A program made the translations under genes and the position numbers. This document shows, one piece after another, positions 27,330 through 28,532 of a stretch of 30,432 nt of DNA. Within the stretch, counting starts at the first letter, position 1. Every line of letters begins with the position of its first letter. The notes beneath the pieces are model-generated. The model searched no databases, was not told the origin of the DNA, and worked only from the letters and a program-made list of their open reading frames with translations. Origin of the DNA: an uncultured Chlamydiae bacterium (lineage in GTDB: Bacteria > Chlamydiota > Chlamydiia > Chlamydiales > Parachlamydiaceae); NCBI GenBank assembly GCA_963830365.1, contig CAWHMU010000017.1, positions 1 through 30,432 on the forward strand. Direction: 5' to 3'.

Positions 27330-27404
27330 TAAAAGGGGCCGGAGCTGATAAAAGGAGCCGGAGCTGCGATAAAAGGGGCCGGAGCTGCGATGTGCGATTC
27401 TCTG
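27330..27404. repeat. Left repeat array: 3 tandem units TAAAAGGGGCCGGAGCTG(CG)A plus a 14-bp unique arm
   Basis: Units at 27330 (19 nt), 27349 (21 nt, one G>A) and 27370 (21 nt), then TGTGCGATTCTCTG. Confidence 0.95.
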
Positions 27405-27406
27405 AT

Positions 27407-28381
27407 CTAAAGGATTTCTTTAGGTAAGTTAGATTGGGACGAAGTGAGCAGTAGTCTGGTTACCTCAAGCAAGGAAGGACGGTTTTCAACACGTTTAGCC
27501 AGCTTGGACATGGTTCCATGATGCTTACCAAGCTTGCGACAAGCCTCTCCCAGACTGCTGCCAGGAATAAGGCGACAGGCGTAAGCAAGGATCGAACGAG
27601 CATCAACGAGAGACGTGGTCTTGCCTTCCCCTTGGAGTTCTTCAGTCGTAATATCATAGTGATTGCAAACTGTTTTTATTGCATTGTCAAATGATTTACA
27701 TATGTCGACTTCAATCCTATCGACGTCCTCGCTCTTCAGTATCTCAGGAGCATATATGTGCACAAACTCGTCGCTACCAAAGACCCCGATGCGAGTTGCC
27801 TTGCGTATAGCTTCGATGTCAACTTCAGCCTCCGATTTCATGGATGTATACTCTGCGAGGTTTGTAAGCGCTTCTAGTCGCTTATTGCCGAAACGCGCCA
27901 AGACATGGTCTGTTTCGAGCCAGACAAATGTGTCATGTCCAAAATAAGCATTATGGCTGCTCCACCGATAGTTGCCGGGTTTTGCTACGAGACCCGCCTC
28001 CACAGGATTTAAGTGTATATAACGCGTCAACCTTCGAAGATACAAACCATCCTCAACCAAAATGGAACGAAAGCGGCCCTGATACAAATATCCTCGTCGT
28101 TTGTAGCGCTTGTTGAAGTGTTGAGCATATCGAAATGCAAACGCATGCACACAGGCAGCTAGTGGTTCATGACTAGTAGTTGGCTCGAGCATTAAGTGTA
28201 TGTGGTTACCCATTAGGCAGAACGCGTGGACTCTATGGTGATGGATTTCGGCAGCCTCTTGCAGCAGCAAGCAAAATCGAGAACGATCTTCGTCATCACC
28301 AAACAGGAAAGTCCCGTCGATTCCACGCAGCATCACGTGGTGGTACATGTGTTGTTGCCAAATCCGTTTCTTTCTGGCCAT
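27407..28381 (-). CDS. REP-associated tyrosine transposase-like protein (Y1_Tnp/HUH) with a C-terminal DnaA-domain-IV-like HTH
   Basis: YHHVMLRG, HAFCLMGNHIHLM (HUH), YAQHFNKRYKRRGYLYQGRF, YIHLNPVEAGLV..P.NYRWSS (catalytic Tyr region). C-terminal IKTVCNHYDITTEEL..KT...VDARSILAY...SLGEACRKLGKHHGTM. Strong RBS GGAGGTG. Confidence 0.92.
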   Translation of the reverse strand: MARKKRIWQQHMYHHVMLRGIDGTFLFGDDEDRSRFCLLLQEAAEIHHHRVHAFCLMGNHIHLMLEPTTSHEPLAACVHAFAFRYAQHFNKRYKRRGYLYQGRFRSILVEDGLYLRRLTRYIHLNPVEAGLVAKPGNYRWSSHNAYFGHDTFVWLETDHVLARFGNKRLEALTNLAEYTSMKSEAEVDIEAIRKATRIGVFGSDEFVHIYAPEILKSEDVDRIEVDICKSFDNAIKTVCNHYDITTEELQGEGKTTSLVDARSILAYACRLIPGSSLGEACRKLGKHHGTMSKLAKRVENRPSLLEVTRLLLTSSQSNLPKEIL

Positions 28382-28432
28382 TTGTCACCTCCAGCAAAAA
28401 ACTACAATGAACCAGATATAAATTTCAGGCAA

Positions 28433-28532
28433 CAGAGAATCGCACATCGCAGCTCCGGCCCCTTTTATCGCAGCTCCGGCCCCTTTTACAGCTCCGGCCC
28501 CTTTTACCGGCCCCTTTTACCGGCCCCTTTTA
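28433..28532. repeat. Right repeat array: 14-bp unique arm plus 5 tandem units of 21, 21, 18, 13 and 13 nt ending CCGGCCCCTTTTA
   Basis: CAGAGAATCGCACA, TCGCAGCTCCGGCCCCTTTTA x2, CAGCTCCGGCCCCTTTTA, CCGGCCCCTTTTA x2; reverse complement of the left array. Confidence 0.95.

Follow-up and report, generated by a model that had tools for sequence, protein, structure and literature searches.

A TIRtron-type HUH transposase gene between stacked prefixes of its own terminal inverted repeats in a Chlamydiae genome

The window, a 30,432-nucleotide stretch of DNA from an uncultured member of the Parachlamydiaceae, corresponds to contig C17 of the source genome (G000), which is an 82%-complete bin of 2.73 Mb in 48 contigs. 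It harbours a transposase gene enclosed by inverted repeats, flanked on one side by an Asp/Asn beta-hydroxylase-family gene and on the other by a eukaryote-like gene with about 10-11 near-identical PPR repeats (Table 1). No Rfam match and no promoter- or terminator-like site was found in 27200-28700. A weak DUF818 match nearby and an 87% match to a piece of a Chlamydiae MAG agree with a probable chlamydial source. The GC content rises from position ~30170, and another reading frame from there resembles what is presumably a thiolase fragment, thus the contig end may be mis-joined.

Table 1. Features of the element and its neighbours in the window.
Feature	Position	Strand	Basis or remark
Asp/Asn beta-hydroxylase-family gene	26495-27220	+	one side of element
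Left element end (predicted)	between 27329 and 27330		
Outermost left unit, 19 nt (18-nt TIR prefix plus one A)	27330..27348	+	sequence
Extra left unit, 21-nt TIR prefix, one substitution (G>A)	27349..27369	+	sequence
Core TIR downstream of gene, 35 bp, 2 nt from stop codon	27370..27404	+	sequence
Doubled 7-nt direct repeat in left TIR	27386..27399	+	sequence
Predicted TIRYT gene, TnpA-Y1 subgroup 2.1.2 type, 324 aa	27407..28381	-	ORF and Pfam
Bac_DnaA_C-like helix-turn-helix domain (aa 233-296)	27494..27685	-	Pfam and structural match
Y1_Tnp core (aa 11-123)	28013..28351	-	Pfam
Predicted catalytic Y121	28019-28021	-	invariant in alignment
HUH motif H60-I-H62	28196-28204	-	invariant in alignment
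Shine-Dalgarno-like site, 4 nt before ATG at 28381	28386..28392	-	sequence
Core TIR upstream of gene, 35 bp, 51 nt from start codon	28433..28467	-	perfect inverse of 27370-27404
Doubled 7-nt direct repeat in right TIR	28438..28451	-	sequence
Extra right unit, 21-nt TIR prefix	28468-28488	-	sequence
Extra right unit, 18-nt TIR prefix	28489-28506	-	sequence
Extra right unit, 13-nt TIR prefix	28507-28519	-	sequence
Outermost right unit, 13-nt TIR prefix	28520-28532	-	sequence
Right element end (predicted)	between 28532 and 28533		
Gene with ~10-11 near-identical PPR repeats, eukaryote-like	28618-30288	+	Pfam PPR_2, E 1e-124; directly adjoins element

The encoded protein harbours a Y1_Tnp domain (E 7.5e-11) and a C-terminal Bac_DnaA_C domain (E 5e-10; 39.7 bits against a Pfam cut-off of 31.5), both above the Pfam cut-offs, which bears out an earlier sequence-only reading of the gene as an HUH/Y1 transposase with a DnaA-IV-like domain. 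For 25 proteins picked among the matches listed (120 of 934 homologues), H60, H62 and Y121 were invariant in 25/25 of the aligned sequences, and from general knowledge of the HUH family we take Y121 to be the catalytic residue. The AlphaFold model (pLDDT 90) has TnpA-REP (4ER8) as its top PDB match, and its C-terminal domain, as predicted, resembles the DNA-binding domains of DnaA (3PVP, with an rmsd of 1.9 Å over 86 columns, and 1J1V). The 324-aa start is favoured over the 313-aa database call because of the Shine-Dalgarno-like site just before its ATG.

The gene, the arms and the arrays of the element are real. The arms, at 27330-27404 and 28433-28506, share 97% identity across 75 nt, so that the inverted arms of about 75 bp described by the sequence-only reading stand, except that the right arm together with its array spans 100 bp. 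The true TIR is 35 bp, that is, a 5-nt tail, the core GGGGCCGG and a doubled 7-nt repeat; stacked outside it are extra units that are variable-length prefixes of the TIR, read inward. Unit lengths of 21, 21, 18, 13 and 13 nt on the right (to 28532) and 21, 21 and 19 nt on the left were confirmed, the first 21-mer of each arm belonging to the 35-bp core TIR. Two units at this locus end at CCGG, and the array here does shorten outward; the shared unit end is not 'always' kept, as the left unit at 27349-27369 carries a G>A change. In agreement with the proposed lack of a hairpin in the unit, 5/5 arm and unit sequences folded no better than their shuffles (z from +0.5 to +1.2). The 13-mer occurs exactly 15 times in the 2.73-Mb genome versus 0.07 expected from base composition, thus the repeats are not due to chance.

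Unit numbers at the locus are as assembled, since neither of two read runs (each with ~5% of words) spans the arrays, and with the bin incomplete and fragmented one could suspect the arrays of having arisen in the assembly of short metagenome reads. This is hardly credible: the arrays are shorter than a read, they consist of unequal unit lengths with array-private substitutions, and the same register is found in independent assemblies, including the near-complete G287 (3 contigs; L116 and L134).

The element is almost certainly a TIRtron, that is, a TIRYT gene of TnpA-Y1 subgroup 2.1.2 with its TIRs, as judged from its sequence by the described features of TIRYTs and subclass 2.1. In the accessible text of PMC3733652, TIRtrons/TIRYTs are RAYT-like genes between TIRs, with gene-less TIR families and a GGGGWSAS motif that is common but not universal, other TIRs being without it. 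As described in the accessible text of PMC6006769, 20 of 26 TIRYTs fall in TnpA-Y1 subclass 2.1, whose subgroup 2.1.2 bears Bac_DnaA_C and is equated with TIRYT by the authors. The element harbours (i) a Y1 core with the HUH motif and a predicted catalytic-type Tyr; (ii) a C-terminal helix-turn-helix (HTH) of the Bac_DnaA_C type, among the admitted types Bac_DnaA_C, HTH_23 and HTH_28; (iii) close flanking TIRs, 51 and 2 nt from the gene, with no REP hairpin; and (iv) a gene-less TIR family in the same genome, a feature that is optional in the source. As in the TIRtrons of PMC3733652 (accessible text), a RAYT-like HUH/Tyr gene is thus accompanied by TIRs instead of REPs, a GGGG-led motif and gene-less TIRs that occur singly, as dimers or in clusters elsewhere in that genome; as in subgroup 2.1.2 (PMC6006769, accessible text), the protein is long, with a C-terminal Bac_DnaA_C-like HTH and no REP hairpin nearby. 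One difference from PMC3733652, as far as its text is accessible, lies in the core, as GGGGCCGG holds the same position here as GGGGWSAS there; this mismatch was not treated as excluding because the source itself reports TIRs without the motif. The element is therefore a known class with a variant core and not a new class, and the 'uncharacterised class' once proposed for it gives way to a gene-plus-TIR design with Bac_DnaA_C that is already described in the accessible parts of PMC3733652 and PMC6006769. Searched by term, the supplements of PMC6006769 that were accessible held no chlamydial entries. The RAYT groups of PMC5581495 (accessible text) were not a basis for placing this element.

Two other assignments were rejected. 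A REPtron or classical RAYT does not fit, as there are no hairpin REPs with a GTAG tag and NCBIfam NF047646 scored below cut-off (E 4e-17; 62.4 bits versus 80). An IS200/IS605 element would have a short TnpA, subterminal hairpins and no TIRs, none of which was found here, and the NCBIfam IS200 model scored 13.9 against a cut-off of 55. IS200/IS605 transposition is not known to produce a target duplication, and with the TnpA of that family (IS608, ISDra2) the element shares this trait and the core fold; unlike it, the element has symmetric TIRs in place of subterminal hairpins, no tnpB and extra domains. With E. coli TnpA-REP and its REP/BIME arrays (PMC3333891 and PMC8266576, accessible text) it shares the HUH/Y1 fold, dispersed gene-less paired ends and local tandem amplification, yet it has neither a hairpin in the unit nor a GTAG tag and bears a C-terminal HTH. 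Moreover, the apparent cut lies here at a fixed distance, whereas TnpA-REP, in the same accessible texts, cuts between C and T on either side.

Homologues at E<=1e-60 were found in 22/400 genomes of the phylum. One plasmid record matched at E<=1e-25, phage records yielded no homologue at 1e-15, three homologue loci lie on viral contigs, and a locus search started from this protein alone yielded 13 loci, most of them distant. Comparable flanks, which the sequence-only reading had proposed to look for, are the rule: TIRs were found in 73 of the 82 loci with a full gene and both flanks (drawn from 132 distinct homologue loci). In a tree of 53 proteins, from full-length loci of the genomes that carry a G handle here plus hand-picked metagenome loci, the CCGG-type core GGGGCCGG is present in five, all on one branch (support 94/76) that is nested among TCAG-type proteins; the TCAG core is that of most TIRtrons. 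Both the inner repeat word and a KH(H/Q/N)GT helix motif are common to the three nearest elements and lacking from the other rows, a co-occurrence that counts as one event because it is confined to one clade.

Three paralogous TIRYT genes of 36% identity with canonical cores also reside in the source genome (G000:C20:43576-44496, C20:48555-49475 and C28:29818-30684). The C28 paralogue has 12-nt tandem end units, the two C20 paralogues share 94% identity and part ways at the tail of the downstream arm or slightly past it, and upstream of one TIRYT paralogue arm copies recur at 226-bp spacing. At the upstream ends of L005, L089 and L013/L015, a whole arm-spacer-arm hairpin stands in place of a single arm, while the upstream flank of L010 holds a copy of the gene's 3′ end plus TIR, head-to-tail before the element.

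The register of element ends was determined over 175 ends of 106 loci with a recognisable core, after seven duplicate loci were dropped; the counts and p-values below overstate independence, as loci and units are related. A perfect tandem duplication covers the core at 42 of these 175 ends (24%), as compared with 31 of 7750 random flank positions (0.4%). The allowed start of the duplication includes position -5 in 22 of the 42 (-4 in 13, -6 in 10), while 20 do not include it, many of them at 7-11. Within the CCGG clade, -5 is included in 44/61 (next best, -6 in 23), a count in which every array unit was entered and the search pattern fixed three tail bases. A test that is independent of arrays, in which the left end of each of 69 elements was compared with its right end, gave 39, 30, 27, 32 and 33 matches at -5 to -1 (22, 19, 20, 23 and 22 expected), and 20 at -6 (22 expected); tails were alike at at least four of five positions in 14 of the 69 pairs versus 2.3 expected. 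A target duplication was rejected at both candidate boundaries, with at least 4 nt at -5 in 0/69 pairs.

Extra units of 7-39 nt are present on 37 of 92 CCGG-clade arm ends (four genomes). Among 83 parsed CCGG units, 57 are pure prefixes and 26 carry 1-7 extra non-prefix bases; the parser forces starts at -5, so these units were not used as evidence for the register. Outward shrinkage, which had been read as a telomere-like rule, does not hold as one: adjacent units shrink in 24 cases, grow in 15 and tie in 7 (p 0.2). Nor is CCGG/AGCT the constant position, since what is constant is the outer end, 5 nt beyond GGGG, and the inner ends fall at 7-39 nt. Junction microhomology is at chance (0 nt in 42/57 versus 42.3 expected). 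Among 72 array-free CCGG ends, 63 have a purine joined to the tail; distinct unit ends are purines in 28/38 (51% expected, p 0.005) and never T, and in the wider set a purine stands at the junction in 15/21. This bias weakly extends to -7 to -9, at 67-71% out to -7.

These features bear on whether an enzyme is needed at all, as host-only slippage or unequal recombination at the A4G4 run beside a large inverted repeat might also stack units. Identical neighbours (13/13 here, three of 35 in L187, and the seven ties) could indeed be copied by slippage once a first duplicate exists. Such an origin of the arrays is nevertheless improbable, given an outer start that is fixed across unrelated tail sequences, microhomology not above chance, a junction purine preference, and a frequency of duplication at ends far above that at flank positions. 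The fixed outer start, variable inner end and lack of microhomology instead agree with the suggestion that the arrays are an enzyme-made record of duplications.

A doubled repeat in the inner segment recurs family-wide, at lag 8 in 59 and at lag 7 in 21 of 174 inner segments, against 2.8 and 2.9 in shuffles. Its sequence is unlike a DnaA box. This doubled 7-8-nt repeat is a candidate binding site of the HTH; PMC6006769, in its accessible text, doubts that the HTH reads GGGG and names no binding site. It would replace the idea of the HTH binding the units like iterons, as the repeat is absent from the 13-nt units. The accessible text of PMC3733652 describes TIR dimers and clusters with no mention of fixed-start prefix duplications, a 5-nt tail or a doubled inner repeat; likewise, a search of the running text of open-access papers turned up neither the register of 5 nt nor the symmetry of the tails, the purine at the junction or the doubled inner repeat.

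As a whole explanation of the stacked units, a nick 5 nt outside GGGG, extension by a host polymerase and early resealing is preferred, at a probability of roughly 0.58. Of its parts, the nick position 5 nt outside GGGG is probable on the pattern of the ends, and the nick-prime-reseal route is slightly favoured. HUH enzymes leave a 5′-phosphotyrosine and a 3′-OH able to prime or reseal (PMC8266576, accessible text), and nick, prime, extend and reseal have been drawn for BIME amplification (PMC3333891 Fig. 7B, in the accessible part). In the proposed sequence of events, the HTH would bind the doubled repeat and the Y1 core would read the GGGG core; Y121 would nick the strand that reads 5′-flank, tail, GGGG-3′ between flank and tail, staying on the 5′ end of the tail; and displacement synthesis, primed by the flank 3′-OH, would run into the element. 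Once k nt have been added, stalling or a second nick, preferably after a purine, would free the new 3′ end, which would attack the phosphotyrosine to yield prefix(k) plus TIR. Repeated rounds would stack units, and slippage could then copy identical neighbours. Rarer complete events would move the element or internally deleted miniatures with no target duplication.

The prefix(k) plus TIR scheme predicts a fixed start, a free end, no microhomology and inherited local variants. A mirror model with a nick in the other strand is less economical, as the 3′ end would have to slip back without homology. The simple model does not yet account for everything, because of the 20/42 duplications without -5 and the 26/83 units with non-prefix bases.

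The same enzyme and nick site might instead supply units that are cut and joined, in which case a single-stranded end fragment, bounded by the fixed nick and a variable second nick, would come from the sister strand, the opposite arm or another copy. The product would be the same, and TnpA-REP carries out strand transfer between separate substrates in vitro (PMC3333891 and PMC8266576, accessible text); moreover, both arms here show a 21-mer followed by an 18- or 19-mer, and tails are alike between arms beyond chance. However, units of one array share private variants of their own and not those of other loci (G000 C7:38638 and C39), and the G>A variant in the window is on one arm only, which makes this a less likely source of the units.

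If nicking and priming are the route, cut site, strand and run-on length could be read directly from arrays. The arrays then predict, base by base, an end 5 nt outside GGGG, a nicked strand that reads into the element, a purine before the junction, no target duplication and a doubled inner repeat that is the HTH site. Such base-level predictions would turn a descriptive class into a one-gel experiment; for any TIRYT, biochemistry or a mapped end, cut site or binding site was not found in the literature searched. The TIRYTs form one of the larger groups of TnpA-Y1, and the way in which RAYT-type enzymes multiply their repeats is described as still open in the accessible text of PMC8266576. More tentatively, and with rather less likelihood, TIRtrons may be a mechanistically separate HUH branch. 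Both ends would then act as nicking origins of the rolling-circle type, one for each strand, with the HTH on the doubled 7-8-nt repeat and a nick that tolerates sequence changes yet falls exactly 5 nt outside the core; the paired arm would serve as the template for rebuilding the far end, and the arrays would record in vivo initiations that were aborted.

Gene-less copies, whose existence had been suspected, are present at seven other loci of this TIR family in the source genome, including paired-arm miniatures; none of the seven falls within a long host ORF on the likely coding strand. An internally deleted derivative (G000:C7:38506-38708) keeps the leader and the last codons of the gene. The two arms of a given copy have private variants in common, as would be expected from arm-to-arm copying. 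Motif matches numbered 80, 34 and 20 in G143, G380 and G264, the genomes with the closest CCGG-type proteins, versus 4, 0 and 0 for reversed controls, and one G143 miniature recurs at several unrelated sites. The CCGG families of G143 (L186-L203) and G380 (L204) are richer, with as many as nine units per array and a single unit of 91 nt that extends into the spacer. G143 and G380 are better experimental material than this locus.

The exact 22-bp palindrome that the sequence-only reading had assembled from the two ends was found once in the source genome, at G000:C30:26332-26353. That reading held that the element had split a pre-existing palindrome and that paired arms were cut and rejoined at CCGG/AGCT into progressively shorter outer units. 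The presence of the palindrome, the local array that shortens outward with two units ending at CCGG, the 12 of 23 multi-unit arrays that are non-increasing and the variants shared by the arms of single copies would all suit it. Yet, of 401 genomes, the three that have the palindrome pattern all encode the CCGG clade (G380 is not one of them), and the palindrome itself carries arrays (L187, L189 and L206); the TCAG core of most TIRtrons cannot form it; and neither the 24/15 ratio of shrinking to growing neighbours nor inner ends at 7-39 nt indicate progressive shortening. A split host palindrome is therefore highly improbable, and from its clade-restricted occurrence and its own arrays the palindrome is best read as the smallest gene-less derivative and not as a host target. 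Under the preferred nick-and-prime model, deletion between two CCGG words would produce the 22-bp palindrome, which would still be a substrate.

As to movement, no pairs of filled and empty sites were found among the genomes compared, which include none of the same genus, and pairwise gene comparison gave only one near-identical full pair at different places (L013/L015). A low-depth contig of read run X1, 97% identical over 213 nt, has a single arm with a different flank, and such a relative with another flank is consistent with movement.

A second repeat family is represented at G000:C42:22912-23150 and at least 23 other sites by a ~240-bp imperfect palindrome. No empty form was found among 24 copies with both flanks. 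The palindrome contains a nested 99-bp unit with a canonical GGGGTCAGG arm at each boundary, the 5-nt tails of the two arms being mirror images of one another. Five copies were checked, and each is placed either between long ORFs or at the edge of one.
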